DNA of 64,000 bases from positions 2,616 through 66,615 of the IMG/VR virus record IMGVR_UViG_3300027708_000068, one strand, 5' to 3'. Below the pieces are notes generated by a model that was given only the letters and a program-made list of their open reading frames with translations, had not been told where the DNA came from and made no database searches. This DNA comes from a virus. Numbering within the stretch: position 1 is the first letter of the stretch; every line of letters starts with the position of its first letter. A program made the position numbers and the translations under genes. Shown here one piece after another: positions 2,497 to 26,790 of the stretch.

Positions 2497-2852
2497 TTTA
2501 CTTTGTTATGCCGGTCGATGTCACATGTTTGCACGGGTTTCTTCTTTGTAATCATAGAGTTACAGCAATATTTTTTTAAAGTGGTTTTGTATTTTTTGCA
2601 AAATATATCTATGGGGTAGGATTCCGTTTGTTTAATGCCGGGGGGTGTTTCTATACACACGATGTGTATAACGTAATGCAAAATGAACAAGGGGGGAGGG
2701 GGTCTAACTAATTCTCAAGTACCAGTATCGGTTGCGCAAATCTTAGAGTAGATGGGGATTGGGACTCCTTGTTTTAGATTTTGGGGTGTGGGGGTGCGTG
2801 AACTACCCTAACAATGTTAGGTTTTAAATCCGACTTTTAGTTTCCTACAAAC

Positions 2853-2881
2853 TTGTATTTTGTACCCCAATTTGGTAAATT
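2853..2881 (+). promoter_or_regulatory. Early promoter (class A) TTGTAT-17-TAAATT with extended -10 TG
   Basis: Same -35 and similar spacer as the promoters at 4456 and 7260; upstream of the first + strand gene. Confidence 0.6.
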
Positions 2882-2952
2882 AGAATCATGCAGTAAGGGA
2901 TTAGTTAGGTGTCCCGTTCAACCCTAACAATGTTATATAAGGTGATTACATC

Positions 2953-3456
2953 ATGAATATCAATCTAGTTGAGTTGCGTCAGAATGTAGCAGAAGCAACA
3001 GGGCGTCAGTATGGTGCGGTAAAAGAGTACGCTAAGGGTTTGAATCAATCGTTTGATTTTGCTTGGTTCGAAGTTGAGGCACAAGACCAATCGGCAGAGG
3101 GTAAGGCAGTTAAGGCAGAGAAGTCAGAGTTTTACAAGCCAATGAAGTTAGCTGGTCATTCTAACCCTTCAACAGTATGGGCAAGAGTTCGGGCAGATGG
3201 TTTGGCAGATGCTAAAGCCAATGAGTTGTTCGGTTATGTTGCAGATGTCGAAACCGAAGATAGCGAAACAGAAACAGAGGGTAGCGGTGCTAGTCATGCT
3301 CGTAGCCCAATGCTACGCAACATTGAGGAATTGACTAAGTTGTATAAGTTCAATAAATCTCAGACAGGTTTAGACCCTAAGATTATTAAGGCACAGCAGA
3401 AAATTTCTGAGGCTTTGATTGAGTTGGGAATCAACCTAACAATGTTAGCTAAGTAA
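2953..3456 (+). CDS. First early protein, unknown function (167 aa)
   Basis: AAGGTG RBS, own promoter and terminator; palindrome copy in its last codons (NLTMLAK). Confidence 0.85.
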   Translation: MNINLVELRQNVAEATGRQYGAVKEYAKGLNQSFDFAWFEVEAQDQSAEGKAVKAEKSEFYKPMKLAGHSNPSTVWARVRADGLADAKANELFGYVADVETEDSETETEGSGASHARSPMLRNIEELTKLYKFNKSQTGLDPKIIKAQQKISEALIELGINLTMLAK

Positions 3457-3462
3457 ATCACA

Positions 3463-3510
3463 GGGGGGAGAAATCCCCCTTACTTTTTCAAACCCCTTCG
3501 GGGGTTTTTT
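3463..3510 (+). terminator. Tandem Rho-independent terminator hairpins
   Basis: GGGGGA-GAAA-TCCCCC followed by AAACCCC-TTCG-GGGGTTT and a T-tract. Confidence 0.8.
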
Positions 3511-3529
3511 CCTTTTGGACTTTTGGTTT

Positions 3530-3990
3530 CTTTTGTTATTTTTTATTTTTATGATAGTTCTTATGATAGTTCCGAAAGGAAGAACGGCAGGGTCGATAGC
3601 TTTTGACGCAAGGATTGCATTGTTATTAAGGGAATTCCCTTTGTTATCTTTTTAACCCCTATTGTTATTGCGTTAGCTAACAATACAAACCCTTACTGGG
3701 CATGGCTTACAGGGTGGAGTTTGTGGTCAATCCTCACAATGTTAGGTATTTTCAAATATTGTATGTCCGTTTTTGAAACTGCAAAAGAAAAAGAACCCTC
3801 TACGAAGTGCAGAAATTATTTTAGAGGCTATATATATAATTTTTTAAAAACATTAACATTACATACACAACTATAACTTTCACCACGAAAGCCTTACCCA
3901 TCATGCCTCTTTAATGTTATACTTCTCATTAACAAATCTTCACAAAGCATCACAAAGTAACATATAAACCATAACATTAAGGAAAAGCAC
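3530..3990. other. Putative replication origin or control region
   Basis: About 500 bp noncoding; TTGTTA half-sites on the left, TAACA half-sites on the right, AT-rich core at 3829-3850, and a G/T to A/C composition switch. Confidence 0.4.
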
Positions 3991-3991
3991 C

Positions 3992-4381
3992 ATGAAGCAC
4001 TTAGCTAACCACCCAACACCTGATGACCCAAACAAGTTCTACACACCTAAGCAATACCTACAAAAGTATTTCTATTACAAAGATGGGCAACTCATCAAGC
4101 ACTCAACAGATAAACCAGTAGGCACAGTAAACACACAAGGCTACTTGCAAGTCATGTTTGAACGCAAGCTATACACAGTTCACAAACTAATCTACATCCT
4201 TCTACGCAACCGAGTGCCAGCACTAATCACCCATGCAGATGGAAACAAACTTAACAATAGGATAGAGAACCTAATCCCTAAAGAGCAACGCAAGAAACCA
4301 CTCAAGTATGGCAAACAAGAACCCAAAGTCCCCAAGTTTGCACGAGCCAAACCTAGCAACATAATCCATCCATATAGTTAG
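3992..4381 (+). CDS. HNH endonuclease-like protein (HNH_3 type, possibly degenerate)
   Basis: 'VHKLIY...ITHADGNKLNNRIENL' resembles the DHxxGxxxNNxxxNL motif but with TH. Confidence 0.7.
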   Translation: MKHLANHPTPDDPNKFYTPKQYLQKYFYYKDGQLIKHSTDKPVGTVNTQGYLQVMFERKLYTVHKLIYILLRNRVPALITHADGNKLNNRIENLIPKEQRKKPLKYGKQEPKVPKFARAKPSNIIHPYS

Positions 4382-4455
4382 CAACCCCTAACATTTAGTC
4401 CTCCCATCACCTACCGCACAATCGTTTCCCTTTGGTCACCGCTCGGCTAAAGCCC

Positions 4456-4484
4456 TTGTATTTCGTACCACATTATGTTATACT
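4456..4484 (+). promoter_or_regulatory. Early promoter (class A) TTGTAT-17-TATACT with extended -10
   Basis: TTGTATTTCGTACCACATTATGTTATACT. Confidence 0.75.
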
Positions 4485-4546
4485 AGTTATATTAGATAGA
4501 GCAATACATATTCAATCCAACCAAGCAAACGAAAGGGAACATAACA

Positions 4547-4651
4547 ATGTTAGATAAGACGAAAGGCGGATTTGTGGATAAGTTCTTTGATTTCTTGCTA
4601 GTGCTACTCCTACTAGCTTTTATAGCTAACCTAATACATGGTGCGATATGA
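4547..4651 (+). CDS. 34-aa single-TM peptide (MLDKTKGGFVDKFFDFLLVLLLLAFIANLIHGAI)
   Basis: Not in the track; AAAGGG RBS; ATG lies inside a palindrome copy; ATGA-coupled to the next ORF. Confidence 0.6.
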   Translation: MLDKTKGGFVDKFFDFLLVLLLLAFIANLIHGAI

Positions 4652-4833
4652 CAGGCGACATACTAAAGATTAAGGGCATTACTTACGAGATATGGGAAGA
4701 AGGCTATTCAACCACTATATTGCGTAGTTTAGATTCTCGTCACTATTTTGTAACACTACATAATACTAGCCCCTACTTACATAAAGCATATGCAAAGACT
4801 ACAGAGGGGCAACCATGTCAGACGACTATTTAG
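4648..4833 (+). CDS. Hypothetical early protein
   Basis: Coupled ORF in the early operon. Confidence 0.6.
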   Translation: MTGDILKIKGITYEIWEEGYSTTILRSLDSRHYFVTLHNTSPYLHKAYAKTTEGQPCQTTI

Positions 4834-4997
4834 TTATGGCTCGGGTTATGGAGAGAGAACTCGAGAAGTGGAAGAAAGAGCAAAAGACATTTAATAGCTG
4901 GACAGGCATAGAGCAGTTGTATGCAGAAGCCGCTTATCAAGATGGTTTTATGGCTGGTTTCTTGTTGAAGTTTACAAAGGCAGATGAGAGGGGCTAA
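4815..4997 (+). CDS. Hypothetical early protein
   Basis: GAGGGG RBS; its stop TAA is part of palindrome copy 4994. Confidence 0.65.
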   Translation: MSDDYLVMARVMERELEKWKKEQKTFNSWTGIEQLYAEAAYQDGFMAGFLLKFTKADERG

Positions 4998-4999
4998 CA

Positions 5000-5200
5000 A
5001 TGTTATATGGGTTCGAATGTGAATGTGGTGACGAAGTAGATGCAAGGCGTATCGCAATAGGGTATCAGACTTGTTTGCGGTGCGGTGATGTAGAAGCTAA
5101 GCAGAGGAAGTTTTTAATAGCAAACTTTAATAAACAGGGGTATCAGTTGTTTAGCAACCCTGATGACTTACGATTTACTAACCCAAAGAGGACTACATAA
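5000..5200 (+). CDS. Small Zn-finger protein (CxC...CxxC)
   Basis: 'ECECGDEVDARRIAIGYQTCLRCG'; start codon inside a palindrome copy. Confidence 0.7.
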   Translation: MLYGFECECGDEVDARRIAIGYQTCLRCGDVEAKQRKFLIANFNKQGYQLFSNPDDLRFTNPKRTT

Positions 5201-5439
5201 TGAAAGCATATGAAAAAATTGTAATGACACCTGACGAACTAGATGATGGCTCGGTGGTGATTAACTTTGATGTAGTAGATGACTACAACATACCTACTAG
5301 ACAAGGTGGATATGTAATATCTAGGAAAGACGAAGTAGATAACTGTTTTTATGTGGTTGTTTGTAATGAACAGGGTGATGTGCTTTCCGAAACCCAAGTG
5401 CCATTTACTTTTGTTGGGGGTGAAGATGAAGGTGATTAA
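5200..5439 (+). CDS. Acidic hypothetical protein (79 aa)
   Basis: GAGGA RBS; TAATG coupling. Confidence 0.7.
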   Translation: MKAYEKIVMTPDELDDGSVVINFDVVDDYNIPTRQGGYVISRKDEVDNCFYVVVCNEQGDVLSETQVPFTFVGGEDEGD

Positions 5440-5626
5440 GGTATTCATAAATCGTGAAACCGAACCACGATTCTTTGAGTATCGCAGAGTAGGTGAGAAA
5501 GGCTTGGAATTGTTTGAGGGTTGGTTATTGGTTGCTTACCCCCTAGATAAACCCGAGTCCAAGCGTAGTGCTAAGTGGCTAGACCCTAGCCGTTGTCGAG
5601 TTGATTGGATAAAGGAGTTTGTATGA
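5426..5626 (+). CDS. Hypothetical protein (start revised to MKVIKVF)
   Basis: In-frame ATG near the end of the previous gene. Confidence 0.6.
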   Translation: MKVIKVFINRETEPRFFEYRRVGEKGLELFEGWLLVAYPLDKPESKRSAKWLDPSRCRVDWIKEFV

Positions 5627-5841
5627 AACAAATTAGCCTAGTAGATGTAGCACGAGAGATTGAACAAGACCCTTTGCAAAAAGCCTTTGTGCTGACGGCA
5701 TTGGAATCATATTGCCGTAGCGTTATTACAGACACAAGCGATTGGGGTAATTCCCTAGTCAATAAGGATGCTTGGGTAGCCATAGCAAGAGAAAACCTAA
5801 CATTGTTAGGGTATGACGAAAACGGAAACAGGGTGGAATGA
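5623..5841 (+). CDS. Hypothetical protein (start MKQISL)
   Basis: AAGGAG RBS; ATGA overlap. Confidence 0.7.
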   Translation: MKQISLVDVAREIEQDPLQKAFVLTALESYCRSVITDTSDWGNSLVNKDAWVAIARENLTLLGYDENGNRVE

Positions 5842-5842
5842 T

Positions 5843-6364
5843 ATGGGCTATCGAAGTGATGTGGGCGGAGTTATTAGTGTGAATACTTGGGGTTATGAGC
5901 CTGAGACCCGAGAGGAACGAGACCTGACCATAACGAAATACAAAGAGATGATTGGGCTTATCAAGCTATCCAAGTTCTATGAAGTCATGAACTCAACCGA
6001 GACAGACCGAACTTGTATTGGGTGGAAGGATGGTTCGTTCTATTTCCATGCACAGAATTGGAAATGGTATCCCGACTATGATGTGGTGAGTGCGTGGGAT
6101 GAGTTGTGGGTGCAGATGCAACAGGTAGAGGGTATATCAGGCTACTTTTGCAGAGTGGGCGAGGAGTTAGGTGACATAGTGCAAGAGGAATTTGGGGATG
6201 AACCCGACTATGATGCGTTCCACCCATACACAGGGATGAGTTGCGAGGTGGCAGACGAGACCTTTGGTGGTGGTGATATTGATGCAGAAACACAAGCAGT
6301 TAAACCTAACAATGTTATAGAGGGAGAAACAATATGTACGGACAGCAACGCAATACAGGCATAG
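5843..6364 (+). CDS. Hypothetical acidic protein (start MGYRSDV)
   Basis: In-frame ATG just after the upstream stop. Confidence 0.7.
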   Translation: MGYRSDVGGVISVNTWGYEPETREERDLTITKYKEMIGLIKLSKFYEVMNSTETDRTCIGWKDGSFYFHAQNWKWYPDYDVVSAWDELWVQMQQVEGISGYFCRVGEELGDIVQEEFGDEPDYDAFHPYTGMSCEVADETFGGGDIDAETQAVKPNNVIEGETICTDSNAIQA

Positions 6365-7218
6365 TGCTACTACGCACTTACGAGGAAGCATTAAGTCATC
6401 TGGAGAATACGAAACCTATTCGTGGCAAAGGTTCTAATGCTGGAAAGATTGCACTTGGATATAGACATAGAACCGCAGAGTTTTATATCGAGATGAACGC
6501 AGACAAGTCGATTGATTGTATGTGCTACCGCACGCCAGTCGTTAGCTTTAAGCCTGACGGCAATATCGTGGTACAAAGTGGTGGGTGGGCTAGCATCACT
6601 ACTTGTATGTTCATTGAGGAAGTATTGGGTATCTCATCTAAGGTTAGGGATTGTTCAATAGTCGTTAGCTTTAATGGCGGAGAGTTCAAAGTTGATAACG
6701 AACTATGCTTAAAGCGTGTAGATGGTCGGCTGACCGCATTAAATCAAAAGCCAACCTATGTGCATAGAGTGAACCGCAAGCAAGCTAACATTGTTAGGAA
6801 GGAATACGCAGAGTTTAATTCTTACCTTAAAGGCTTTCTGAAGTTGCGTGAGGGTGGAATCATTCTTGATACCGAGTATATCAATTTGTTTGGGGCAGAC
6901 AATAAAAGAGGGGGTCATACAGTTAAAGCAGAGATGCCTGTGGATGTAGCACTACGAGATGAAGCACAAGTTCAGAAGTTAATTGACCTCATGCAATCCA
7001 AAGACCCACAGAAAATGTATGAAGCCAGCTTGCGTATCATTAAGCAGTTCGGACATAGAAGTTATTGGCAGAATATGGGGTTTAGTATGCAACCTGCCAG
7101 TATAAAAAGGGCTATGGATAACCTGATATTCGCAAAACACAAGGATGTAATCTTTGATAAGGAAGAAGTGCCAGTAGGAACTATTAAGAAAGATTCTTGG
7201 TCACATTTGTTTAATTAA
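6334..7218 (+). CDS. Hypothetical early protein (294 aa)
   Basis: GGGAG RBS; long ORF. Confidence 0.8.
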   Translation: MYGQQRNTGIVLLRTYEEALSHLENTKPIRGKGSNAGKIALGYRHRTAEFYIEMNADKSIDCMCYRTPVVSFKPDGNIVVQSGGWASITTCMFIEEVLGISSKVRDCSIVVSFNGGEFKVDNELCLKRVDGRLTALNQKPTYVHRVNRKQANIVRKEYAEFNSYLKGFLKLREGGIILDTEYINLFGADNKRGGHTVKAEMPVDVALRDEAQVQKLIDLMQSKDPQKMYEASLRIIKQFGHRSYWQNMGFSMQPASIKRAMDNLIFAKHKDVIFDKEEVPVGTIKKDSWSHLFN

Positions 7219-7259
7219 GGGGGGTATAAAAATCTTTAGTTATGGTAAGACTGAATCAT

Positions 7260-7288
7260 TTGTATTTCGCACCACAGAATGTTATAAT
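7260..7288 (+). promoter_or_regulatory. Early promoter (class A) TTGTAT-17-TATAAT with extended -10
   Basis: TTGTATTTCGCACCACAGAATGTTATAAT. Confidence 0.8.
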
Positions 7289-7372
7289 GGTATATAAAAA
7301 TAAAAAAGTAGTAGAGCGTAGTAAAAACCAACCGCCTAACATTGTTAGGCACACACAAAAGGAAAAGTAGAA

Positions 7373-8440
7373 ATGGCTGAATTAAATTTTGGTAAGACCC
7401 TTACACTCGCACAAGCATCTGAGTTATTGCTAGCGACCCCCGAGAATCGTTACTTATTACAAGGCGAGCCGGGAATTGGTAAATCTTCTTTACTCAAGAC
7501 CTTAGGTCAAGCCTTACCCTCGCATGAGATTGCTTACATTGATGTACCAAACATGGACTTAGGTGATATTGCTATGCCAGTCGTAGACCATGAGAGCAAG
7601 ACTACCGCCTACTACCCTAACCGCAGATTCAAAATGCACACGGGTAGACCCGTAGTAATTATGCTTGATGAGTTTACGAAGGGTGCAGACCCAGTTAAGA
7701 ATATGTTGCACCCCCTACTAGAGAAGGCAAACCCTCGCTTGGGTGATGTGGAAGTTCACCCCGAATCTATTATCTTTATGACTGGTAATCTAGGTAGTGA
7801 TGGGGTAGGCGATACATTGAAAGCCCATACTCGCAATCGAGTTGTGCCTGTGACTGTGCGTAAGCCTGATGCAGATGAGTGGTTATCTTGGGCTATTAAC
7901 AATGGTATTGCACCTGAGGTATGTGCATGGGTTCGTCAGTTCCCTCATGCTATGGCTAGCTATACCGAAGAAGGACAAGCAGAGAATCAATACATCTATA
8001 ACCCTAAGAAAGTTCAGATGGCGTTTGTATCTCCTCGTTCCCTCGAGACTGTATCTAACATTGTTAGTAAGCGTCATAGATTAGATGCCGATACGCTAAT
8101 AGCTAGTATGTCAGGTGCAGTAGGTGAATCAGCAAGTCGGGATATGCAAGCATACATTGAATATGCAGACCAGTTGCCTACATGGGATAACACTATTGCT
8201 AATCCGAAGTCAGCGTTAGTTCCTGAAAGTGCTGGTGCTTGTGCGATTGTAGTATTCGGTGCGATTGCGAAGATTGATAAGAATACTATTGATACATTCA
8301 TGACATATCTTGAACGATTTGAAAGTGAATGGCAAGCGTGTTTTGCTATCAATGTAGCTAAGTCTCCAAGCAAACAAGCGATTGCATTTAGTAGCCGTAA
8401 GTTTACTGAGTGGGTTGCTAAGAACGAAGATTTGCTATGA
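7373..8440 (+). CDS. MoxR/CbbQ-like AAA+ ATPase
   Basis: Walker A GEPGIGKS, Walker B IMLDE, sensor TGN, 'SPRS' sensor II; near a VWA gene. Confidence 0.88.
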   Translation: MAELNFGKTLTLAQASELLLATPENRYLLQGEPGIGKSSLLKTLGQALPSHEIAYIDVPNMDLGDIAMPVVDHESKTTAYYPNRRFKMHTGRPVVIMLDEFTKGADPVKNMLHPLLEKANPRLGDVEVHPESIIFMTGNLGSDGVGDTLKAHTRNRVVPVTVRKPDADEWLSWAINNGIAPEVCAWVRQFPHAMASYTEEGQAENQYIYNPKKVQMAFVSPRSLETVSNIVSKRHRLDADTLIASMSGAVGESASRDMQAYIEYADQLPTWDNTIANPKSALVPESAGACAIVVFGAIAKIDKNTIDTFMTYLERFESEWQACFAINVAKSPSKQAIAFSSRKFTEWVAKNEDLL

Positions 8441-8592
8441 AAAAAGAAAAGACTGAACCTAAAAAGCGTAAGGTAGTACAGAGGGATACCATAAGCCGTC
8501 AGCGTGTAGAGCAGATACAAAAAAGTGGTATCGGTGAGATGCGTAAGCGGTTGTATGAGATGGGTATATTCGGAATGAAAGATATTTTATAG
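8437..8592 (+). CDS. Small basic hypothetical protein (51 aa)
   Basis: Hand-translated MKKEKTEPKKRKVV...; ATGA overlap with the ATPase stop. Confidence 0.5.
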   Translation: MKKEKTEPKKRKVVQRDTISRQRVEQIQKSGIGEMRKRLYEMGIFGMKDIL

Positions 8593-8600
8593 GGGGTCAT

Positions 8601-8792
8601 ATGGAAAAAGAAGATGAATCGTGTGTACTTAATTGGGAGGTGTTTGTAGTTGACCATAGCGATGAACTATGGGGTGTGGGTAGGTCTGTAACTAATAGTG
8701 ATGGTAAGTTTCAGTATCAGAAATACCATAGGACATTTAACAGCGAATTAAAAGCTAAGCAAGTAGCAAACGAACTTAATAAGGAAAGCTAA
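8601..8792 (+). CDS. Hypothetical protein (63 aa)
   Basis: AGGGG RBS; stop codon within palindrome copy 8789. Confidence 0.65.
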   Translation: MEKEDESCVLNWEVFVVDHSDELWGVGRSVTNSDGKFQYQKYHRTFNSELKAKQVANELNKES

Positions 8793-8794
8793 CA

Positions 8795-10030
8795 ATGTTA
8801 GATAAAACTAAAGAAGTAGCAGATGAGTTTACGAAAGTAGATATGAGTAAAGAAGAACGCAGACTTAAGAAGGTCAAGATTTCATTAATGCGTAATTCTA
8901 GGTTTGCATTATGGTCAGGCATCCTCATGGTCGGCAAGACTTATGTGCGTGATGATATAGATACGGCTTGCACCAATGGTCGTGATGAGATTTATGGTAG
9001 TAGCTTTATCAAGTCGTTAGATGATAAAGAGTTAGCCTTTGTTGTATTACATGAGGCACTACATAAAGCATATCGTCATCTATTTACATGGCGTAAGTTG
9101 GCAGAAGAAGATAAAGAATTAACTAATGCCGCTTGTGACTATGTAATTAACTTACAGCTAGTAGAGTTAGACCCAAACCAAGAAGTGATTGCTATGCCTA
9201 TGAAAGAGGGCAAGGTAGTTGGCTTAGTAGATAAGCGATTTAAAGGTATGAACACCAAGCAAGTATTCGATATTCTAAAAGAAGAAGGTTTTGGTGGTGG
9301 CGGTGGCGGTGGTAAAGGGTTTGATGAGCATGATTGGGAAGGGGCTAAAGACTTAACTGATGAGGTTAAGAAAGAACTTGCAAAAGATATTGACCAAGCT
9401 ATGCGGTCAGGTCTTATTGCACAGACTAAGCTACATGGTAAGGGTGGCGGTGGTATGAATCGTGAACTTGATGAGTTGCTTAACCCCAAGATTGATTGGC
9501 GTGAGCAGTTGCGTGAGTTTGTCAAGACTGTTTGTGCTGGTCGTGATTCATCCTCATGGCGTAGACCGAATCGTAGATACCTAGCCCAAGATGTATATAT
9601 GCCTAGCATGGTATCCGAGAAGATTGGTCGTATTGCAATCGGTATTGATACTAGCGGTAGCCAAGGTGCGAGAGAAATTGCGGATTGTTTGTCCGAGGTT
9701 CAAGGTATCGTCAATGAGGTATGCCCACAGTTTATTGACCTTGTGTATTGGGATGCAGAAGTTGCAAACCATGAACAGTACGAAGGGTCAGCCGTATCTA
9801 ACATTGTTAGTGATACTAAAGTAATGGGTGGTGGTGGTACAGACCCTACTTGCATGGCGGTACATTTGAAAGAGCAGAGCATTAAACCTGAGTGCATCAT
9901 TCAGCTAACTGATGGCTATATCGGTAACTGGGGAACACCCGAAGAATGGCAAGATGTGCCAATGTTGTGGGCGATTGTTGGTGGTGGTAACGCAGTAGCA
10001 CCAGTCGGTAAGACTATTTACATTAACTAA
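8795..10030 (+). CDS. DUF2201-like metallopeptidase plus VWA-domain protein
   Basis: HEALH zincin motif, Gly-rich linker, MIDAS 'IDTSGS', 'GGGTD', 'LTDG'. Confidence 0.88.
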   Translation: MLDKTKEVADEFTKVDMSKEERRLKKVKISLMRNSRFALWSGILMVGKTYVRDDIDTACTNGRDEIYGSSFIKSLDDKELAFVVLHEALHKAYRHLFTWRKLAEEDKELTNAACDYVINLQLVELDPNQEVIAMPMKEGKVVGLVDKRFKGMNTKQVFDILKEEGFGGGGGGGKGFDEHDWEGAKDLTDEVKKELAKDIDQAMRSGLIAQTKLHGKGGGGMNRELDELLNPKIDWREQLREFVKTVCAGRDSSSWRRPNRRYLAQDVYMPSMVSEKIGRIAIGIDTSGSQGAREIADCLSEVQGIVNEVCPQFIDLVYWDAEVANHEQYEGSAVSNIVSDTKVMGGGGTDPTCMAVHLKEQSIKPECIIQLTDGYIGNWGTPEEWQDVPMLWAIVGGGNAVAPVGKTIYIN

Positions 10031-10040
10031 GGAGAATGAA

Positions 10041-10190
10041 ATGGATAGGTGGGAGGAAGAATTTGAAGATTTATTTGATGATGTTGAGGGTTCGTTTGCG
10101 AACATGGCTAAGGCTTACTTCAAAGCTGGATGGATGTCAGCAATTCAAATCATGCAAGACAGAGTTGGAGAGGGGTTTGATGATGAGTAA
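10041..10190 (+). CDS. Highly acidic 49-aa protein (MDRWEEEFEDLFDDVEG...)
   Basis: Not in the track; AAGGAG RBS; better supported than the N-terminal part of track ORF 10036. Confidence 0.6.
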   Translation: MDRWEEEFEDLFDDVEGSFANMAKAYFKAGWMSAIQIMQDRVGEGFDDE

Positions 10191-10431
10191 AGGCATACTA
10201 AATCTAGGCTATCAATCGTATGTAATAGATACACAAGATGCAGTTACTTTGTTTGAAATACTTAGCAAAGCGGAAAGGTATGAGGATAAGTATCGAGGCT
10301 CAGGAAATAAAAACACAATCCATGTGTGGGAGCCTGATACAGACGAGCAGAACAAGTTTAGTTTTGCACTAATCCCCAATTCTATTTATCGTGTCGCTAA
10401 GATGGCAGGTAAACCCGAGGATAAGTCATGA
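10183..10431 (+). CDS. Hypothetical protein (start MSKGILNLG)
   Basis: GAGGGG RBS; overlap coupling. Confidence 0.7.
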   Translation: MSKGILNLGYQSYVIDTQDAVTLFEILSKAERYEDKYRGSGNKNTIHVWEPDTDEQNKFSFALIPNSIYRVAKMAGKPEDKS

Positions 10432-10607
10432 AGAAATATCAAGTGCTAGTAACTGGGAGTGCATACCTAGAGGGCGAGGGTAATACCCCCGAAGAAGCTA
10501 GGTTGCAAGTGATGAACCGACTACAAAATATTCGGTTTGGTGTATGGGATTTAGATTTTGAATATGTATGTGATGAAGCAGACTTATTGGAGAATGAAGA
10601 TGATTGA
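10428..10607 (+). CDS. Hypothetical protein (59 aa, MKKYQVLVTG...)
   Basis: Hand-translated; GAGG RBS; ATGA overlap. Confidence 0.6.
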   Translation: MKKYQVLVTGSAYLEGEGNTPEEARLQVMNRLQNIRFGVWDLDFEYVCDEADLLENEDD

Positions 10608-10794
10608 AGTTACTTATGCAGATATGTTTTTAGGTGTAGTCGTTCTATTGTTGGGTGGCTTGCTGGTTAAGGCTAAGGTGGAATTGATTATGCACAAGAG
10701 ACTAACAATGTTAGGTTTACAGGCGGTGATGGAAGGTGATGCCGAGATTGTTAGAGAAGATGGATACATTCAAATTAGAGGGGTAAGAAAATGA
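10600..10794 (+). CDS. Small membrane protein
   Basis: Hydrophobic segment 'MFLGVVVLLLGGLLV'; GGAG RBS. Confidence 0.65.
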   Translation: MIEVTYADMFLGVVVLLLGGLLVKAKVELIMHKRLTMLGLQAVMEGDAEIVREDGYIQIRGVRK

Positions 10795-10964
10795 TTGTAT
10801 TTGAAATTGTAAATAAAAAGCATACTGAGAAGTTCAGCATGAAAGAGATGGGTTTAATCTATGACGCATTAAATGAGTACCCTCAATGGAACGACGATGA
10901 AGATGATAACCCAACATCTCGCATCATGAACAAACTTTATAATTTATTGGAGAACGCAGAATGA
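10791..10964 (+). CDS. Hypothetical protein (57 aa, MIVFEIVNKK...)
   Basis: Hand-translated; ATGA-coupled on both sides. Confidence 0.55.
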   Translation: MIVFEIVNKKHTEKFSMKEMGLIYDALNEYPQWNDDEDDNPTSRIMNKLYNLLENAE

Positions 10965-11812
10965 GCATAGCATCTAGCGCAGTATTAGTAGAGTTAAATA
11001 TAAGCGTTTGGCCCGCAAACAAATTAGACAAAAGTGCAACCGAAGCGGTGATTGCGGATAACTCGGCTGGCAAAAACTCGGCACAGGTTCGTAAGAATCT
11101 ATTGGCTGGCTCTAGCTTGCGTAAGGACATTAGCGATTATGCGGCTGGTACTCGCTTGTATAACAATAAGATTACTTTGCCATGGTCAGACAAGGGTGCA
11201 AGACTATTGCCGACTAGCTTGATGATGGACTACCGACCCAACATGAATAATCGACAGCAGTATTTTAATAAGCTGTTACTAAACTTTTATTCTAACTACG
11301 ATACGCTAGTAGGCACAAGTAAGATTTACATGGGCAGTCTCTTTAACGAGAATGATTACCCACCCCTTGAGGAAGTGCAGAAGAAGTTTGGCTTTCGCTT
11401 AGTCTTTTCTCCGCTAGCAGAGAAGGGGGATTTCCGTATTGATGTAGGCAACCAAGACATAGAGGAACTATCAGAGAATTATGAACAAGCGTACCAAGAA
11501 CGAGTAGCCGAAGCTATGCGCAAACCTTGGGGTGACTTGCATGATTTGCTCAAAGGTATGAGCGGTAAGTTAGCTGATGTTGATGGCGAAGAAAAGAAAA
11601 GATACCACGAATCTTTTGTGTCTAATGCTCAGGCTATGTGCGGTTTGCTTACTAACTTAAATATTACTAAAGACCCTAAGTTAGAAGAAGCTAGGCGTGC
11701 ATTGGAACTAACAATGTTAGGTGTGGACATTGAGGAAGTTAAGGATAGCCCGATAGTCAGAGTAGAGTTAAAGACGAAGATTGATGACATTCTTAAGAAG
11801 TTTGATTGGTAA
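10961..11812 (+). CDS. DUF3150-like helical protein
   Basis: 'VLVELNISVW...G.RLLP...YP..EEV..KF' pattern recalled for DUF3150-like partners of AAA/VWA modules. Confidence 0.55.
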   Translation: MSIASSAVLVELNISVWPANKLDKSATEAVIADNSAGKNSAQVRKNLLAGSSLRKDISDYAAGTRLYNNKITLPWSDKGARLLPTSLMMDYRPNMNNRQQYFNKLLLNFYSNYDTLVGTSKIYMGSLFNENDYPPLEEVQKKFGFRLVFSPLAEKGDFRIDVGNQDIEELSENYEQAYQERVAEAMRKPWGDLHDLLKGMSGKLADVDGEEKKRYHESFVSNAQAMCGLLTNLNITKDPKLEEARRALELTMLGVDIEEVKDSPIVRVELKTKIDDILKKFDW

Positions 11813-11832
11813 TATTAACTAAGGAAAACGAA

Positions 11833-12678
11833 ATGACAAATAAATTTGTAGAAAAAAGTGAGTTCATTAACACGGACTTTGATAAGTTACAAACGGATGC
11901 ACGAGCACAAACCATTCATGGGGTTAATCCACACTTAGCGGTGTTAGCGCAAGCAGTAATTGCAAAGTACCCACAATGGCAGTTAGTTGCGGTTAGGGCA
12001 GACCAGCATATTACGCACGAAAATGTAAGTGGTAGATTAGTTACTAATTTTAATATTATCGAAAAGCGTGAGAAGTTGGGTTATATCGGTTGGGACTATT
12101 CATATAGTCGTGGTGACCAATATGTAGTTGGCAACGATAGAATCTCTGAACAAATGGAACGCCAGACGCATACTAAGACTACGAAGATAGATGTAGCTAT
12201 GCGACATATTAAGAAACACTTTAGCCCCAAGACTACTGACGAACACTTTGCTAAGTCGGTTGCTGAGGCGTCACAAAACATCCATAGACAAGCGCAAAAT
12301 ATTAACTATGAGGTAAGAAGTAACTATAGTGATATACAGCAAGAAGTCCTTGATTTTGTTGATGCTAATTGGACATTATTTACATCTACGCTAAACAACA
12401 CAAAGGTTGTAATGGCAGCTAAATATTTAAACCAAAAAAACAAACTAGAAACTATAAATAAGATACAGGAAGCTAATCTAAGAAAATTGTCACACGATAT
12501 ATTGCTACGAGGTAACGAATATGTTATAAGGCATAAAGGGGTCATTAGTATTTTTGACAACGAGCATTTGCCACAAGAACTAAAAATGAAACTAGGTATG
12601 CTTAAGCTAGTAGGAGTAGGTGAGATGGTAGATGGTATTGGCTATCGTGGCACAGAAGATTGTTTTATTGTTATTTAA
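11833..12678 (+). CDS. Hypothetical protein (about 281 aa)
   Basis: AAGGA RBS before ATG 11833. Confidence 0.75.
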   Translation: MTNKFVEKSEFINTDFDKLQTDARAQTIHGVNPHLAVLAQAVIAKYPQWQLVAVRADQHITHENVSGRLVTNFNIIEKREKLGYIGWDYSYSRGDQYVVGNDRISEQMERQTHTKTTKIDVAMRHIKKHFSPKTTDEHFAKSVAEASQNIHRQAQNINYEVRSNYSDIQQEVLDFVDANWTLFTSTLNNTKVVMAAKYLNQKNKLETINKIQEANLRKLSHDILLRGNEYVIRHKGVISIFDNEHLPQELKMKLGMLKLVGVGEMVDGIGYRGTEDCFIVI

Positions 12679-12694
12679 CTAAGGAGAACTAACA

Positions 12695-12883
12695 ATGTTA
12701 GCTATTAAAAATATATTTAAAAAAGAATTAGAAAAACCAAAGGGTGAGCTACCTTTAGCGATTGATAAAAACTCAGCTTTTATTTATCAGGGCGGTGCTG
12801 ATGTGCAAAAGGTTTGGCGTAAGTATGGTTGGGTTCCACCATCTGAATATCGAACTGATTATGAATTTGGAAAGAAGGATTGA
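12695..12883 (+). CDS. Hypothetical protein (62 aa)
   Basis: AAGGAG RBS; ATG inside palindrome copy 12689. Confidence 0.7.
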   Translation: MLAIKNIFKKELEKPKGELPLAIDKNSAFIYQGGADVQKVWRKYGWVPPSEYRTDYEFGKKD

Positions 12884-12884
12884 T

Positions 12885-13061
12885 ATGACGGAAGAAACTA
12901 AAAGAAAAGGTCGAGGTAAGGGTAAAACCCCACCTATGCTAAGCACAAGTATCCGCTTATCAACAGACATAGTAGAGTATTTCAAAGGGAGGTATCCGCA
13001 TAAGTGGCAGTCAGAAATGCGGAAGGTGTTAATTAATTTTATTGGGAAGGAGAATAAATGA
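12885..13061 (+). CDS. Ribbon-helix-helix (BrnA-antitoxin-like) DNA-binding protein
   Basis: 'KGRGKGK...TSIRLSTDIVEYFK...WQSEMRKVL' matches the BrnA-type RHH pattern. Confidence 0.65.
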   Translation: MTEETKRKGRGKGKTPPMLSTSIRLSTDIVEYFKGRYPHKWQSEMRKVLINFIGKENK

Positions 13062-13324
13062 GTAATGTAATACAAGGTGCAACTGGTGCGCAGTATGAGT
13101 TATTAGATACCAGTCCGAAGAACACAGATATGGTCAATAGCCCTAGTCATTACAAAGTAGGTGGTATTGAAACGATTGACTTTATTGAAGCTAAGAATTT
13201 GGGTTATCACTTAGGTAATGCTATAAAATACATTAGCAGAGCAGACCATAAAGGCGCAAGAATTCAAGACCTAGAAAAGGCTAAGTGGTACTTGGATAGA
13301 GAGATTAAAAGACTTAGTGCCTAG
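13058..13324 (+). CDS. DUF3310 (SaV / T7 gp1.7-like) protein
   Basis: 'DMVNSPSHY..GGIETIDFI...GNAIKYISRA.HKG...DLEKA.WYL'. Confidence 0.88.
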   Translation: MSNVIQGATGAQYELLDTSPKNTDMVNSPSHYKVGGIETIDFIEAKNLGYHLGNAIKYISRADHKGARIQDLEKAKWYLDREIKRLSA

Positions 13325-13385
13325 AGCATTTCGTAAAGACAATAGCTTATAGAAGTCTTGTATATGCGGTAAGCGATTTGTCGTA

Positions 13386-13472
13386 GTAGTTGGGGTCTAG
13401 GCGCATTGGTATTTTCCCCACTACTCACCTTTCACGAACACGACGAGGGGCGTGCTAATATACTAACCCCTC
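13386..13472 (+). ncRNA. Candidate structured RNA: hairpin plus H-type pseudoknot
   Basis: GTAG-TTGGGG...CCCCA-CTAC hairpin; CACG(13439)/CGTG(13451) crossing GAGGGG(13445)/CCCCTC(13467). Confidence 0.4.
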
Positions 13473-13516
13473 ACCCCACCTAGTATTAACCCCCATAAAA
13501 AATATCCATAAACTCT

Positions 13517-13544
13517 TTGACAGAGTAAAGAACTATGCTATACT
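13517..13544 (+). promoter_or_regulatory. Promoter (class B) TTGACA-16-TATACT, probably leaderless for the VRR-NUC gene
   Basis: Shares GACAGAGTAAAGAA with the promoter at 21835; ATG 7 nt after the -10 and no SD. Confidence 0.75.
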
Positions 13545-13550
13545 CATGGC

Positions 13551-13859
13551 ATGGCTAGCACACCCGAAAAAAAAGTAAAAGACAGTTGCGTTAAGCTCTT
13601 AAAGAGCTATGGTGCATACTATTTCTACCCTGTTATGACAGGGTTTGGGCGCTCAGGAATCCCCGACATCATTAGTTGTGTTAGAGGTAAGTTCCTAGCC
13701 ATAGAGTGTAAGGCTGGCGACAATAAGACCACCGCACTACAAGAACGAGAACTACAAAAAATAAATGAGGCTGGAGGCGTATCGTTGGTAATCAATGAGA
13801 CGAACCTAACAATGTTAGATGAGATACTAAAAGGATTGACGCATGGAACGAAATTCTGA
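13551..13859 (+). CDS. VRR-NUC nuclease (Holliday junction resolvase-like)
   Basis: 'TPEKKVK...GIPDII...FLAIECKA...LQ' PD-(D/E)xK pattern. Confidence 0.85.
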   Translation: MASTPEKKVKDSCVKLLKSYGAYYFYPVMTGFGRSGIPDIISCVRGKFLAIECKAGDNKTTALQERELQKINEAGGVSLVINETNLTMLDEILKGLTHGTKF

Positions 13860-14247
13860 CTTTTGCACAGGCGTGCAGATTTTACTTAGTCGCATGGAAA
13901 GTAATCCCGAGGAGTTTATAAGCGGGGATAAGTGGTATTGGATTATGAGCAAGGTAGTAGACACTAAAAGAAACCCAACCCACAACTCAAATACTTTAGC
14001 TGAATTAACAGCCGAAGAAATTAACGCGCTCTTTGATGCGTATACGCCTTTCTTACGCAAACGTTTTGATGATTCTGTTTTGAGGGAGGTTTTAGCTGAT
14101 GGGGAAAAGGAACTATCATATTCTGTGACGTCAGCCCCACCAACCGTTTTAGGGAATTCCCATGGGGCAACATGGACAAACCATCAAACTCATGTGAACA
14201 AACACACGATGATGCTACACACGCTAGGGCTTAAGGAAACGATATGA
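13843..14247 (+). CDS. Hypothetical protein (134 aa)
   Basis: AAGGA RBS; overlap coupling. Confidence 0.7.
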   Translation: MERNSDFCTGVQILLSRMESNPEEFISGDKWYWIMSKVVDTKRNPTHNSNTLAELTAEEINALFDAYTPFLRKRFDDSVLREVLADGEKELSYSVTSAPPTVLGNSHGATWTNHQTHVNKHTMMLHTLGLKETI

Positions 14248-14939
14248 GAATCAACGTAGAATGGGGTAACCTTCCTGAACAAGTTGCGGACACAGATTTA
14301 TTAACCATTGAACCTGTACCTGTATTTAAGTTTTACCCCGAAACGGCTACCGCCGACTATCGTAAATGCCCAGCACATCAAAACCATTTTAAGAATACTT
14401 ATGTGGTATGTAGTCCTATTGATATAGAAATTACTATTAATAAAGAAGAAAATTGGTGCGATATTTTATCTCCTAAAGGACTACCCCCTGAAATATTAAA
14501 CCCAAGATTTAAAGAAGAAAATGAATCCCCATACCCAATATTTTCTCTTAGGCTGAGTCGTTTAATTTTTACCCCAAAGGATTCTCCTAAAGATGTATAT
14601 ATAGCTCAACTTGAACCTATATTAGAATGGGATAGGGATAAAAATATTCGTATTGTTGAAGGTAATTTTAATATTAGCAAATGGACTAGACCAATAGAAT
14701 CTTCTTTTGAACAACGTAATAAAACTGTTACGGTTAAATTCAAACGGGGTCAACCAATGTATTATGCAAGATTTTTTACTGATGACCCCGAAGATGTAAT
14801 TGTTTTAAATAGAGTAGAAGTATCGGAAGAAACTCTTAAAGATACAAAACGGTGTACAGACGTAAAAACTTTTTTGCCTAATAATAAACTTCAGGCTTTA
14901 TACGATTTACGCACCCAGTATTTAGAAAGTTTAAAATGA
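14244..14939 (+). CDS. Hypothetical protein (231 aa), AT-rich
   Basis: ATGA-coupled; 'KCPA' and 'FKRGQPMYYARF' suggest a beta-rich fold. Confidence 0.7.
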   Translation: MRINVEWGNLPEQVADTDLLTIEPVPVFKFYPETATADYRKCPAHQNHFKNTYVVCSPIDIEITINKEENWCDILSPKGLPPEILNPRFKEENESPYPIFSLRLSRLIFTPKDSPKDVYIAQLEPILEWDRDKNIRIVEGNFNISKWTRPIESSFEQRNKTVTVKFKRGQPMYYARFFTDDPEDVIVLNRVEVSEETLKDTKRCTDVKTFLPNNKLQALYDLRTQYLESLK

Positions 14940-15319
14940 CAGCGATGCGTAACCCCGATGCAAAACATACGGATTTTACCGACTTTATTGGGGTTATCCC
15001 TAGTAACCCTAAGTTGCTTCCGTCTAACCTAGACATGGTAATAGAACGTTTTGGTAATTTTCTAGTGGGTGAATGGAAACGACCAAACGAAAAAATTAGT
15101 TTGGGGCAAGAAATTCTTTTAAAGCGTTTAGCCACTAAAGAAGATTTTGTTGTGCTATTGATTGAAGGCGATACAGATAATGGCATGGTAGTTAATAAGA
15201 TTGAAGCCTTTACCAAAGATGGTTTGCTTACTCACATAGGCGATGATGTAAACGCACTAAAAGGGTTTATTAAATTTTGGTATGAACACGCAGAGAAGAA
15301 AGCTAGAGGAATAGCATGA
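14936..15319 (+). CDS. Hypothetical protein, PD-(D/E)xK-like
   Basis: 'SNLDMVIER.G.FLVGEWKR......GQ' pattern. Confidence 0.55.
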   Translation: MTAMRNPDAKHTDFTDFIGVIPSNPKLLPSNLDMVIERFGNFLVGEWKRPNEKISLGQEILLKRLATKEDFVVLLIEGDTDNGMVVNKIEAFTKDGLLTHIGDDVNALKGFIKFWYEHAEKKARGIA

Positions 15320-15606
15320 GAAATTTAGTACTTAAATGGTTAAGGCTAGATACTAAAGATGGAGTTGTTAGGACAATTATCCCTGAAGATGAACGTGTTT
15401 CTAGTGAATCAATAAATCACCGTATTGGAATTATTAAAACAATCAATGGGGGTTGCGTATTAGAAATTGGTACTTATAAAGTAAATTCAAGTAGTCGAAG
15501 TTTGGGACATGGAGATTGGACATACGAGTTTTATACAGTAAACGAAGACCAAAAGATTAGTGAAGCGGTTGGTGTTGTGCTTTTGATGAAAGGACTGGAA
15601 AAATGA
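15316..15606 (+). CDS. Hypothetical protein
   Basis: ATGA-coupled ORF. Confidence 0.7.
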   Translation: MRNLVLKWLRLDTKDGVVRTIIPEDERVSSESINHRIGIIKTINGGCVLEIGTYKVNSSSRSLGHGDWTYEFYTVNEDQKISEAVGVVLLMKGLEK

Positions 15607-26765: not shown

Positions 26766-26790
26766 TCCCCGCCTAGTGCGGGGATTTTTT
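26766..26790 (+). terminator. Rho-independent terminator at the convergence of the two arms
   Basis: TCCCCGC-CTAGT-GCGGGGA-TTTTTT. Confidence 0.85.

Follow-up and report, generated by a model that had tools for sequence, protein, structure and literature searches.

Streptomyces phage phiC31 is said to carry a 17-bp inverted repeat at about 18 places in its early region, some of them at early promoters, where the repressor binds; the phage is temperate, and these repressor sites reportedly serve lysogeny. In Cluster A mycobacteriophages (the L5 repressor; the TipsytheTRex structure), one phage protein occupies more than 20 13-mer sites, called stoperators, in promoter regions and short intergenic spaces, where it is proposed to halt both initiation and elongation (PMC9283540), and site specificities evolve within the phage group (PMC6550527). 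Cluster O mycobacteriophages carry a 17-bp palindromic repeat, TGTTCGGNNNCCGAACA, with 34 copies in Corndog (PMC4351075). Plasmid RK2 uses a recurrent palindromic operator, OB, to silence promoters from proximal and distal positions through KorB, a ParB-family CTP-dependent sliding clamp (PMC11790492). The ribbon-helix-helix (RHH) repressor Omega of plasmid pSM19035 places one dimer on each 7-bp heptad, binds two units, direct or inverted, with high affinity, and has its heptads arrayed at promoters (PMC9499535). The first-pass annotation of the DNA analysed here knew of no described phage system of its design, but these reports describe two in phages, the Cluster A stoperators (PMC9283540) and the Cluster O palindrome (PMC4351075), and one in a plasmid, the KorB operators (PMC11790492). 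By analogy, the palindrome network reported below would best be read as a variant of these three.

We interrogated a 64,000-nucleotide window that makes up most of a 66.6-kb virus record from a freshwater phage. Using a motif scan, we found 12 exact and five one-mismatch copies of the palindrome CTAACAWTGTTAG between positions 2808 and 13818. The sites and the features around them are as follows (window coordinates; features marked + lie on the plus strand, the others have no strand).
2808..2820: exact site within the divergent control region, some 75 bp ahead of the inferred P1 start; conserved in related loci L006, L010 and L042
2853..2881, +: early promoter P1, TTGTAT-17-TAAATT; both hexamer regions kept in relatives, spacer diverges (second hexamer TATATT in L006 and L010)
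2924..2936: one-mismatch site lying 116 bp from site 2808, in the leader of gene 1
2953..3456, +: gene 1, 167 aa, candidate binder; helical, no known family, predicted homodimer; bracketed by sites
3436..3448: exact site where gene 1 ends; two terminator-like hairpins come next (3462-3481, 3490-3507)
3534..3669: four right half-sites TTGTTAT in an array (3534, 3621, 3642, 3663), the last three 21 bp apart
3733..3745: one-mismatch site between both half-site arrays
3854..3976: array of left half-sites TAACA (3854, 3930, 3958, 3972)
4456..4484, +: early promoter P2, TTGTAT-17-TATACT, sigma70-like
4541..4553: one-mismatch site, 57 bp past the -10 hexamer of P2
4994..5006: one-mismatch site in which 4815-4997 ends (TAA) and 5000-5200 starts (ATG)
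5797..5809: exact site; ATG at 5813 starts 16 nt later
6306..6318: one-mismatch site; ATG at 6334 starts 28 nt later
6785..6797: exact site deep within a 294-aa gene
7260..7288, +: early promoter P3, TTGTAT-17-TATAAT, sigma70-like
7336..7348: exact site, 48 bp past the -10 hexamer of P3 and 37 nt ahead of the ATG at 7373
8055..8067: exact site deep within a MoxR-like AAA gene
8789..8801: exact site in which 8601-8792 ends (TAA) and 8795-10030 starts (ATG)
9798..9810: exact site deep within a DUF2201/VWA gene; synonymous positions kept in relatives
10702..10714: exact site, 89 nt ahead of the ATG at 10791
11708..11720: exact site within the final 105 nt of a 283-aa gene; next start 98 nt on
12689..12701: exact site containing the ATG of 12695-12883; ribosome-binding-like AAGGAG upstream
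12885..13061, +: RHH protein, 58 aa, BrnA_antitoxin family, the other candidate binder
13806..13818: final exact site; ATG at 13843, 37 nt ahead of which it lies
25795..25807: isolated one-mismatch copy in a primase-helicase gene, possibly due to chance (shuffles give 0.22 such copies per window)

The 12 exact copies in the early region compare with a shuffle mean of 0.01, and none of 100 shuffles reaches 12; with up to one mismatch allowed, the window holds 18 copies against a shuffle mean of 0.22. The six one-mismatch copies start at 2924, 3733, 4541, 4994, 6306 and 25795, and no further exact copy occurs across the whole 66,615-bp record. These counts bear out the first-pass annotation, which had listed the same 12 exact copies, five early variants and one outlier at 25795, had seen no exact copy elsewhere, and had put the chance expectation below 0.1 exact copies. 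Its statement that most copies lie inside unrelated ORFs has to be corrected: only 3 of the 17 early sites (6785, 8055, 9798) are deep in long genes. Apart from these and site 11708, the sites (13 in all) are spread over the divergent control region, 5' leaders, the non-coding stretch downstream of gene 1 and stop/start junctions. Sites 4994, 8789 and 12689 provide the TAA stop and/or the ATG start of adjoining genes; where a site holds the following gene's start codon, as three do, that gene's ribosome-binding-like sequence lies upstream of the site. The domain spans about 11 kb, or one-sixth of the genome, with a mean interval of about 700 bases and a largest gap of 1117 bp. Spacing of the 17 sites is more even than random (CV 0.40, P = 0.0002, 20,000 simulations), and P(CV) is <0.02 in 10 of the 14 related loci tested. 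The extended consensus reads rCC-TAACA-W-TGTTA-GGy.

Each of the sigma70-like early promoters P1-P3 is followed by a site about 45 bp past its start. Across 78 loci, the site centre falls at +35 to +55 in 71 of the 143 promoter-like matches that have a site within 400 bp, compared with 3 of 130 random points. After the consensus-like promoter at 13517, about 260 bp pass before the next site, which is thus not at +45, indicating that not all promoters fit this rule. A pair of sites brackets the gene-1 promoter. Upstream of gene 1, such a pair, 113-140 bp apart, is present in 19 of 61 distinct loci and at least one site within 330 nt in 60 of 61, and the gene-1 stop carries a site in 48 of 57 loci. 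One RNA library yielded three short exact contigs (2904-3300, 4995-5207, 9145-9343), which are uninformative on transcript starts or ends.

To the claim that selection acts on the DNA and not on the protein, the intragenic site in the DUF2201 gene adds support: none of its synonymous positions varies across the window and eight related loci, while neighbouring codons do vary. Loci L012 and L035 carry ATAACATTGTTAT, the variant of their own lineage, at this site, with the residues changed. We also scanned relatives for a region-restricted palindrome, a check the annotation had itself set, and recovered single-domain confinement in five complete relatives: among the matches listed, which are all but six, every exact site lies within one 9-12 kb domain, with at least 10, 16, 12, 19 and 21 sites. 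One site family is common to at least 100 distinct related loci, and sister lineages have other site families. Other palindromes occupy the same region in other lineages (GTAACA-N-TGTTAC, TTAAC-N3-4-GTTAA, CGACA-N3-TGTCG, AGTGG-N3-CCACT, CTAAC-N-GTTAG and others), and it is the more distant relatives that differ in this way. No repeated palindrome was found in seven longer relatives (L016, L019, L026, L034, L037, L041, L043). These comparisons establish the sites, their confinement to a single domain, the selection on DNA, their architecture and the way the sites change in step with the phage lineage.

The best reading, and on balance a probable one given the sequence, is a phage-encoded operator and roadblock network for the early domain of about 11 kb. 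One sequence-specific protein, probably phage-encoded, would dock on the palindromes as double-stranded DNA, binding a half-site as one unit and a palindrome as a symmetric pair. The network would comprise the pair around the gene-1 promoter, one site about 45 bp past the starts of sigma70-like early promoters, and additional sites at gene junctions and inside long genes that leave no gap much above 1 kb. As the protein builds up, transcription would be stopped at the promoters, during initiation or early elongation, and polymerases would be halted throughout the domain; the result would be shut-off of early genes in a phage that appears virulent. The half-site arrays behind gene 1 may form a high-occupancy centre, either a nucleation site or a replication origin. 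We infer both that binding represses transcription and which protein binds. The dimeric protein that the annotation had placed on this segment fits sites that look like docking sites of a two-fold symmetric protein on one domain, and the silencing or looping it suggested is plausible. Its further idea, that the sites pace DNA entry, finds no support: the domain begins at an internal divergent control region, not at a demonstrated genome end, and lies mid-record in two relatives classed as having terminal repeats.

Like Cluster A stoperators, the sites here are many, lie at promoters and between genes, and presumably serve one protein (PMC9283540). Stoperators are asymmetric, monomer-bound, orientation-dependent, genome-wide and devoted to lysogenic immunity (PMC9283540), whereas the present sites are palindromic and cover about one-sixth of the genome of a phage without integrase or resolvase. 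An asymmetric, oriented 13-mer of the Cluster A type is ruled out by this palindromic form, by a centre base that is A in 56% and T in 40% of 576 distinct sites with little strand bias, and by symmetric flanks. A temperate-phage immunity repressor was also considered and rejected: the complete record gave no Phage_integrase or Resolvase match, while control genomes were positive, and no repressor was recognised in it. The Cluster O repeat shares an invariant short palindrome with a free centre, tens of copies, and positions between genes and near gene ends, and it too is without an identified binder in the account given of it (PMC4351075). It is spread genome-wide, whereas the palindrome here keeps to one domain, and half-site arrays and a fixed post-promoter position are features of this locus that the passages on the Cluster O repeat do not describe (PMC4351075). 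As with KorB operators, a single palindromic operator is present many times, both close to promoters and far from them (PMC11790492). A phage-encoded KorB/ParB-type clamp was rejected, as the record lacks the CTP-binding ParB_N domain (PF02195; nothing at E up to 0.1, with detection in 11 of 14 control genomes). The half-site arrays and the palindromes of two abutting 6-7 bp units resemble Omega heptads, but Omega acts in plasmid partition and copy control through few arrays (PMC9499535), compared with about 17 dispersed sites here. The phage RHH protein, a candidate DNA binder, belongs to the BrnA_antitoxin family, in contrast to Omega of pSM19035.

Over 23 loci, isolated half-sites number 0.97 per 100 bp in the 900 bp that follow gene 1, six times their density elsewhere (0.16 per 100 bp), and their order is fixed: in the loci with three or more of each, the TGTTA cluster lies upstream of the TAACA cluster (15 of 15). 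The arrays follow the palindrome when it changes: L044 has ATGTTTT/AAAACAT arrays and the palindrome AAACA-N-TGTTT. Iteron-plasmid Rep proteins bind arrays as single units and palindromes as pairs, and the network could, though we think it unlikely, be a domain organiser tied to replication. The arrays would then be the origin, an initiator would bind them as single units and the palindromes as a pair, and the palindromes scattered over the early domain would serve to titrate this initiator, pair it or spread it in a KorB/ParB-like manner, coupling early shut-off to replication. Such a role would suit the two opposed arrays behind gene 1 (gap about 100-150 bp, 15 of 23 loci), the direct repeats and A+T-rich DNA that adjoin them, palindromes that flank gene 1 like an autoregulated rep gene, the even spacing and the retention of sites within long genes. 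The array layout beside gene 1 and the inverted half-units at its promoter match the iteron type; however, fold searches of gene 1 gave no initiator, no initiator-like family was found in it, the record has no ParB_N domain, and the fixed +35 to +55 position past promoters favours a direct effect on transcription.

In an operator and roadblock network the sites would be read as duplex DNA; the alternative of a folded element is improbable. Such an element would be an RNA or single-strand hairpin, with a 5-7 bp stem and a 3-nt loop, read by an antiterminator, as lambda N reads boxB, by a translational repressor or by an endoribonuclease; or it would be a DNA hairpin promoter, as in phage N4. 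Leader sites about 45 nt past starts, sites beside or on ribosome-binding sites and start codons, and the two terminator-like hairpins behind gene 1 would fit this reading, as would a loop of variable length within genomes that in L029 carries the AGGA of a ribosome-binding-like sequence in 8 of 16 copies. The substitution pattern points the other way. Of 117 single mismatches, 108 fall at the outermost base on one side only, far exceeding the 14 compensated doubles, and the degenerate long-arm positions of L018 show no co-variation by eye. The stems are weak (-1.8 to -2.9 kcal/mol in 8 of the 12 exact sites; z-score above -2 in 8 of 12), there is no Rfam match, the half-site arrays are unable to fold, and site 2808 lies upstream of P1. 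These one-sided changes, the centre that is free or A/T and the arrays led us to reject an RNA hairpin operator of the lambda N/boxB or coat-protein type. An N4-type hairpin promoter is disfavoured, as three sites hold the next gene's start codon and host-type promoters lie upstream of sites. No RNA polymerase family was detected among the large proteins scanned (PHROG, Pfam), and the 2141-aa large virion protein matched no solved chain. The inner 11 bases are near-invariant, with an inner mismatch in 9 of 574 exact or single-mismatch sites, and this invariance, together with the fixed position relative to promoters, indicates a sequence-specific function. Half-site spacing differs by 1 bp inside some genomes (L011, L012, L044, L029), which counts against a rigid dimer, as this would not tolerate such variation. 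On sequence evidence, the palindromes are protein-binding sites in double-stranded DNA rather than hairpins or promoters.

As binder in the operator and roadblock network, gene 1 is a possible candidate. Modelling predicts a symmetric homodimer for its product (score 0.73 against 0.00 for the best control; pLDDT of the partner at least 71; agreement between runs in at least 87% of contacts). Among proteins of solved structure, 20 of 30 pairs and 1 of 23 single chains reach the mark for this score. The gene-1 protein is acidic overall by residue count, and its family has 121 cluster representatives. Its model gave nothing significant against solved folds (best Foldseek E 1.1; best VIA Z 6.6, inside the range common for helical models). 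TAACA is the commonest palindrome arm in 72 of 77 further loci with a gene-1 relative (38-54% identity), and other first-gene families accompany other motif classes; common descent confounds this link, and L019 has a relative of another first-gene family yet no repeated palindrome. The RHH protein, which scores 27.7 bits against Pfam BrnA_antitoxin (cut-off 26.1) and lies inside the domain in five of five complete relatives of the same motif class, is a doubtful candidate. Both had been proposed by the first-pass annotation and stay in consideration, though they are undetectable in a complete relative with a near-identical motif: G006 (L014) has 10 copies of GTAACANTGTTAC, no RHH match and no gene-1 relative in a search that detected its positive controls. 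The HTH protein at 23396, proposed with them, was rejected; its recognition helix stays the same in phages whose palindromes differ, and two complete palindrome-bearing relatives gave no match to it. The binder could well be another phage protein, and is unlikely to be a host protein.

A wholly host-based account, in which a nucleoid or cell-cycle factor reads the sites, as in the matS/SlmA idea, and motifs differ since hosts differ, is likewise improbable. It would explain a motif core that stays constant while gene 1 diverges to 38% identity, the G006 motif that persists without either candidate, and the recurrence of the same 15-mer between genes in one bacterial genome bin that is unrelated. 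The fit to E. coli matS at 9 of 13 positions, given in the annotation, carries no weight here. That bin, however, has 61-63% G+C against about 41% for the phage, and the loci examined in it are without phage genes; arrays beside a lineage-specific first gene and promoter-bracketing pairs are the layout of an autoregulated phage gene. Among the matches listed in a scan of bacterial genomes, most were single hits. Very improbable are selfish or recombinogenic repeats, small mobile elements or sequences kept for gene-cassette shuffling like PeSLs, the promoter-stem-loop cassettes of T4-type phages: 113 of 179 sites are at gene junctions (about 24% of random points; crude gene model) and one strain-level replacement ends 9 nt from site 8789, but the codon alignment shows no insertion where the intragenic site arose and persists, strain-level joints elsewhere (5199/5623) are away from sites, and neither the near-invariant inner bases nor the fixed position relative to promoters fits such repeats.

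To our knowledge, how virulent phages that depend on the host polymerase time their gene expression has been worked out in only a few model phages. With an operator and roadblock network, a cis-regulatory layer could be read straight from the sequence of a large uncultured freshwater phage group through four features: early promoters of host type with a site about 45 bp on, a bracketed first gene, roadblock-like intragenic sites kept at amino-acid cost, and a half-site centre after gene 1. The group may serve as a test bed for how an early block is silenced when neither a phage polymerase nor a known anti-sigma factor is at work, and for how a DNA-binding specificity and some 17 sites change jointly. 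A bolder and rather unlikely version is that gene 1 founds an undescribed dimeric DNA-binding family, nucleates on opposed arrays that double as an origin, fills the evenly spaced palindromes and switches off the 11-kb early domain as a unit, with lineages having exchanged protein and site. If true, this would be a domain-level silencing switch in a virulent phage, distinct from ParB/KorB clamps and from lysogenic repressors.

The palindrome CTAACAWTGTTAG is concentrated in the early region well beyond chance. The 12 exact copies listed by the first-pass annotation recur at the same positions, all between 2808 and 13818, compared with a mean of 0.01 expected from dinucleotide-preserving shuffles of the window, and the part of the record outside the window contains no further exact copy. 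When up to one mismatch is allowed there are 18 copies (0.22 expected), including the five additional early-region copies and the lone copy at 25795 that had also been noted. Specifically, the sites lie among the following features.

Early-domain features of the window
2853, start of promoter P1, sigma70-like
2953..3456 (+), gene 1, 167 aa, a candidate palindrome-binding protein
4456, start of promoter P2, sigma70-like
7260, start of promoter P3, sigma70-like
12885..13061 (+), RHH protein, 58 aa, a second candidate

The source record is 66,615 bp long and rated complete, and the window covers its bases 2616-66615. The record ends (1-483 and 66133-66615, partly outside the window) carry a 483-bp repeat with 15 mismatches between its copies, which sits between the terminase and portal genes. 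Given this position, overlapping assembly of mixed strains is a likelier origin than a genuine terminal repeat; we take the repeat to come from a circularly closed or permuted genome and do not treat it as a proven physical end. Rightward genes span 2953 to 26531, beginning with small ORFs of no known family, followed by a MoxR-like AAA protein, a DUF2201/VWA protein and, beyond about 14 kb, a DNA polymerase, a PD-(D/E)XK nuclease, a helicase and a primase-helicase. The opposite strand encodes the terminase, portal, capsid and large virion proteins, in a series that begins at a shared divergent control region near 2700 and continues round the record to 26789. The MoxR-like ATPase and the metallopeptidase-like DUF2201 protein (7373-10030) are an early-domain pair conserved in all fetched relatives. 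Integrase, resolvase and ParB_N domains were not found in the record, while control genomes gave matches, and the phage is probably virulent. The DNA runs containing it are freshwater metagenomes. Megablast of the region against deposited phage genomes gave no match, and literature searches, which were not aimed at the motif itself or the genes of the group, found no description of the phage group or the motif. Contigs of related strains in the DNA runs skip or replace 8567-8780, 5199-5623 and 12734-15918, the first by 22 bases in place of a 63-aa ORF, with an edge 9 nt from site 8789; these differences represent gene-cassette flux inside the early domain.

We examined where the sites fall relative to genes. 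Most copies had been placed inside ORFs, but only three (6785, 8055 and 9798) lie deep inside long genes. At 11708 the next start is 98 nt downstream, and the other 13 early-region sites occupy the control region, leaders, the non-coding stretch past gene 1 and gene junctions. A separate automatic count of sites at gene junctions (113 of 179, against about 24% of random points) is only a rough figure, since its simple gene model, built on the longest ORFs, assigns some evident leader sites wrongly. The motif at 4994 and 8789 supplies both the TAA stop of the upstream gene and the ATG of the next, and at 12689 it supplies the ATG. The regular intervals described earlier are borne out, with spacing in the window more even than random (CV 0.40, P = 0.0002), as it is in 10 of 14 related loci (P below 0.02). 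Such regularity might simply follow from each gene having one site, and the conserved intragenic sites are the only handle that separates the two. Site 9798 reads xCT AAC ATT GTT AGx in a DUF2201 codon alignment of the window and eight related loci, which reach down to 57% protein identity. It shows no third-position change and no insertion, while the flanking codons vary freely. L012 and L035, two relatives whose genome-wide motif is ATAACA-N-TGTTAT, carry GAT AAC ATT GTT ATG at the equivalent position, with two residues changed. The site therefore follows the motif of its lineage and is kept by selection on the DNA, as had been proposed.

Using the DUF2201 protein, we fetched 40 related IMG/VR loci. 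The closer ones contain the same palindrome in 4-12 copies and others repeat a different palindrome in the equivalent region; no repeated palindrome was seen in seven longer relatives.

Palindromes of other motif classes in the related loci
GTAACA-N-TGTTAC, 10 copies
TTAAC-N3-4-GTTAA, 16 copies
CGACA-N3-TGTCG, 8 copies, each within longer arms (about 13 bp)
AGTGG-N3-CCACT, 8 copies
CTAAC-N-GTTAG, 13 copies
AAACA-N1-2-TGTTT, 10 copies

Gene 1 (38-69% identity) retrieved 80 further loci, or 77 after exclusion of three duplicate records. TAACA is the commonest palindrome arm in 72 of the 77 and reaches 24 copies; the other five have gene 1 at the contig end. The confinement claimed for the window extends to five complete relatives (60-65 kb), where the exact sites, among the matches listed, all fall within a single domain of 9-12 kb. 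The palindrome TTAAC-AGGA-GTTAA of one relative (L029, 4873-12280) has a ribosome-binding-like AGGAG in its centre, and most copies are followed within a few bases by TAA and ATG, so that one 14-mer combines a putative protein site with a stop and a ribosome-binding site. The 66-aa product of window 5000-5200 contains two CxxC pairs, has no Pfam match and is present in 23 of 27 long gene-1 loci; by eye it resembles TraR/DksA-type zinc ribbons, which bind RNA polymerase.

Sites recur close behind promoters. P1-P3 are related to one another (TTGTAT-17-TAnAnT), and each has a site 43-57 bp past its -10 hexamer; the hexamer regions of P1 are kept in two relatives, with a divergent spacer. We surveyed promoter-like matches inside the domains of the window and the 77 loci, restricted to those followed by a site no more than 400 bp away. 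Of 143 such matches, 71 place the site centre at +35 to +55 relative to the inferred start, compared with 3 of 130 random anchor points, and many agree with 10-12 of 12 consensus positions. One or more core sites lie within 330 nt upstream of gene 1 in 60 of the 61 distinct loci with enough upstream sequence. Twenty of these 61 have two, 113-140 bp apart in 19 cases, and a site is present at the gene-1 stop in 48 of 57 loci. The gal operators bracket a promoter and repress by looping, and the paired sites before gene 1 recall such looping operators. RNA contigs from one library, in which starts, ends and strand are not readable, cover 8 of 30 bins. Near the distal end of the site domain, a near-consensus promoter at 13517-13544 (TTGACA-16-TATACT, with an upstream TG) is unlike P1-P3 in having no site at +45, and may drive the replication genes after early shut-off. 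A half-site, the single arm TGTTA or TAACA, was rejected as a -10 or -35 element, there being no consistent partner hexamer by eye. N4-like hairpin promoters or a crAss-like virion polymerase are also unlikely: the 2141-aa, 1499-aa, 960-aa and 787-aa proteins matched no polymerase family, and host-type promoters are located upstream of the sites. The 2141-aa protein (26789-33214, minus strand), probably an injected polyvalent protein, has low-complexity linkers, a HEALH (HExxH-like) stretch, a weak LPD39 match and a C-terminus matching giant phage proteins annotated as DarB-like.

Five observations favour recognition of the candidate sites as double-stranded DNA over recognition of a folded strand. 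First, the non-coding stretch past gene 1 in the window carries four TTGTTAT, three of which are spaced at 21 bp, and beyond an A+T-rich segment four TAACA. Across 23 loci, the density of isolated half-sites in the 900 bp past gene 1 is six times that found elsewhere, and in every one of the 15 loci where each kind is present three times or more, the TGTTA cluster comes before the TAACA cluster. The arrays of a relative with the palindrome AAACA-N-TGTTT (L044) correspondingly read ATGTTTT and AAAACAT. Since half-sites cannot fold, these arrays count toward duplex read-out. Second, over 576 distinct sites the centre base is A in 56%, T in 40%, C in 2% and G in 2%, and the flanks carry the symmetry outward to rCC...GGy. 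Third, 108 of 117 single-mismatch copies differ at the outermost base, on one side only, compensated doubles number 14, and the inner 11 bases are altered in only 9 of 574 exact or single-mismatch copies. Fourth, site 2808 is conserved upstream of P1. Finally, 8 of the 12 exact sites have a predicted RNA fold of only -1.8 to -2.9 kcal/mol, and an Rfam search of the sites matched no family. Spacer length differs by one base inside some genomes, which speaks against a rigid dimer and suggests half-site-binding units with some freedom, as the arrays likewise imply. The stretch past gene 1 also holds two direct repeats TTATGATAGTTC (3551-3575), and in the equivalent place of another relative (L064, 7620-7722) two copies of a longer ATGATAGTGACCAGAG-like repeat lie beside the half-site arrays; both may be a second set of protein sites in a putative origin.

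We then considered the candidate binders. The HTH protein (23378-23623), proposed earlier, is conserved in five complete relatives of the motif class of the window, but it is equally conserved, with an identical recognition helix, in three phages with other palindromes, and was not found in two complete relatives that carry palindromes; it was therefore rejected. Profiles of the core early proteins (283, 290 and 294 aa) gave nothing below E 0.01 against solved chains, and these proteins, which occur also in palindrome-free relatives, were set aside. The RHH protein passes the Pfam cut-off for BrnA_antitoxin, and each of the five complete relatives sharing the motif class of the window has it inside the domain. 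Searches of five genomes from other classes, the near-identical GTAACA class among them, did not find it, and a local RHH profile detected none in 15 further loci, which were of other motif classes or motif-free. Gene 1 has 121 cluster representatives in a large protein library and no Pfam or PHROG family. Its model is helical and confident (mean pLDDT 90), with only common helical matches and none significant among solved folds; an Atlas search returned viral clusters without names, plus a DUF3102 lead whose value of 0.84 falls short of the level that the tool itself trusts. Gene 1 is predicted to pair as a symmetric homodimer, with a score of 0.73 (best control 0.00), a partner pLDDT of 71 or more and agreement between runs in at least 87% of contacts. 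The same mark was attained by 20 of 30 proteins whose solved structures are pairs, and by 1 of 23 whose solved structures are single chains. Other motif classes have different first genes in the equivalent place, bracketed by their own sites, and shallow profiles of four first-gene families detected no homology (probabilities below 3%). The complete relative G006 carries the GTAACA motif ten times within one 17.5-kb stretch, and in that genome a profile that recovered gene 1 from two controls detected no gene-1 relative. In L019 the first gene belongs to another family and there are no sites. Both count against gene 1 as the binder.

Scanning bacterial genomes gave mostly single matches among those listed, as a rough chance estimate predicts. 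The 15-mer CCTAACAWTGTTAGG occurs at least four times on three contigs of a Dinoroseobacter bin (61-63% G+C), far above a rough chance estimate.

Loci of CCTAACAWTGTTAGG in the Dinoroseobacter bin
L190, 1557-1682
L153, about 1380-1500
L183, about 5034-5140

Every occurrence has a further copy or near-copy at a distance of about 85-110 bp, intergenic and beside unrelated metabolic genes, with no phage genes at the loci examined; the element resembles a REP-like repeat.

The reading with the most support is that the sites form a network of operators and roadblocks. Through it one protein would shut off, or otherwise govern, the early domain, with the half-site arrays as its principal landing place or as the origin. 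Such a network would work like the stoperators of Cluster A mycobacteriophages (PMC9283540). In appearance it is similar to a palindromic repeat of unknown function in Cluster O phages (PMC4351075), in logic it is comparable to KorB operators (PMC11790492), and omega heptads have a similar unit-and-pair site grammar (PMC9499535). It belongs to neither the stoperator nor the KorB family, since defining features of these were looked for and not found in it. The feature is real, under strong selection and widely conserved in an uncultured group of freshwater phages, and the network is a variant within an already known kind, not a new kind of system.
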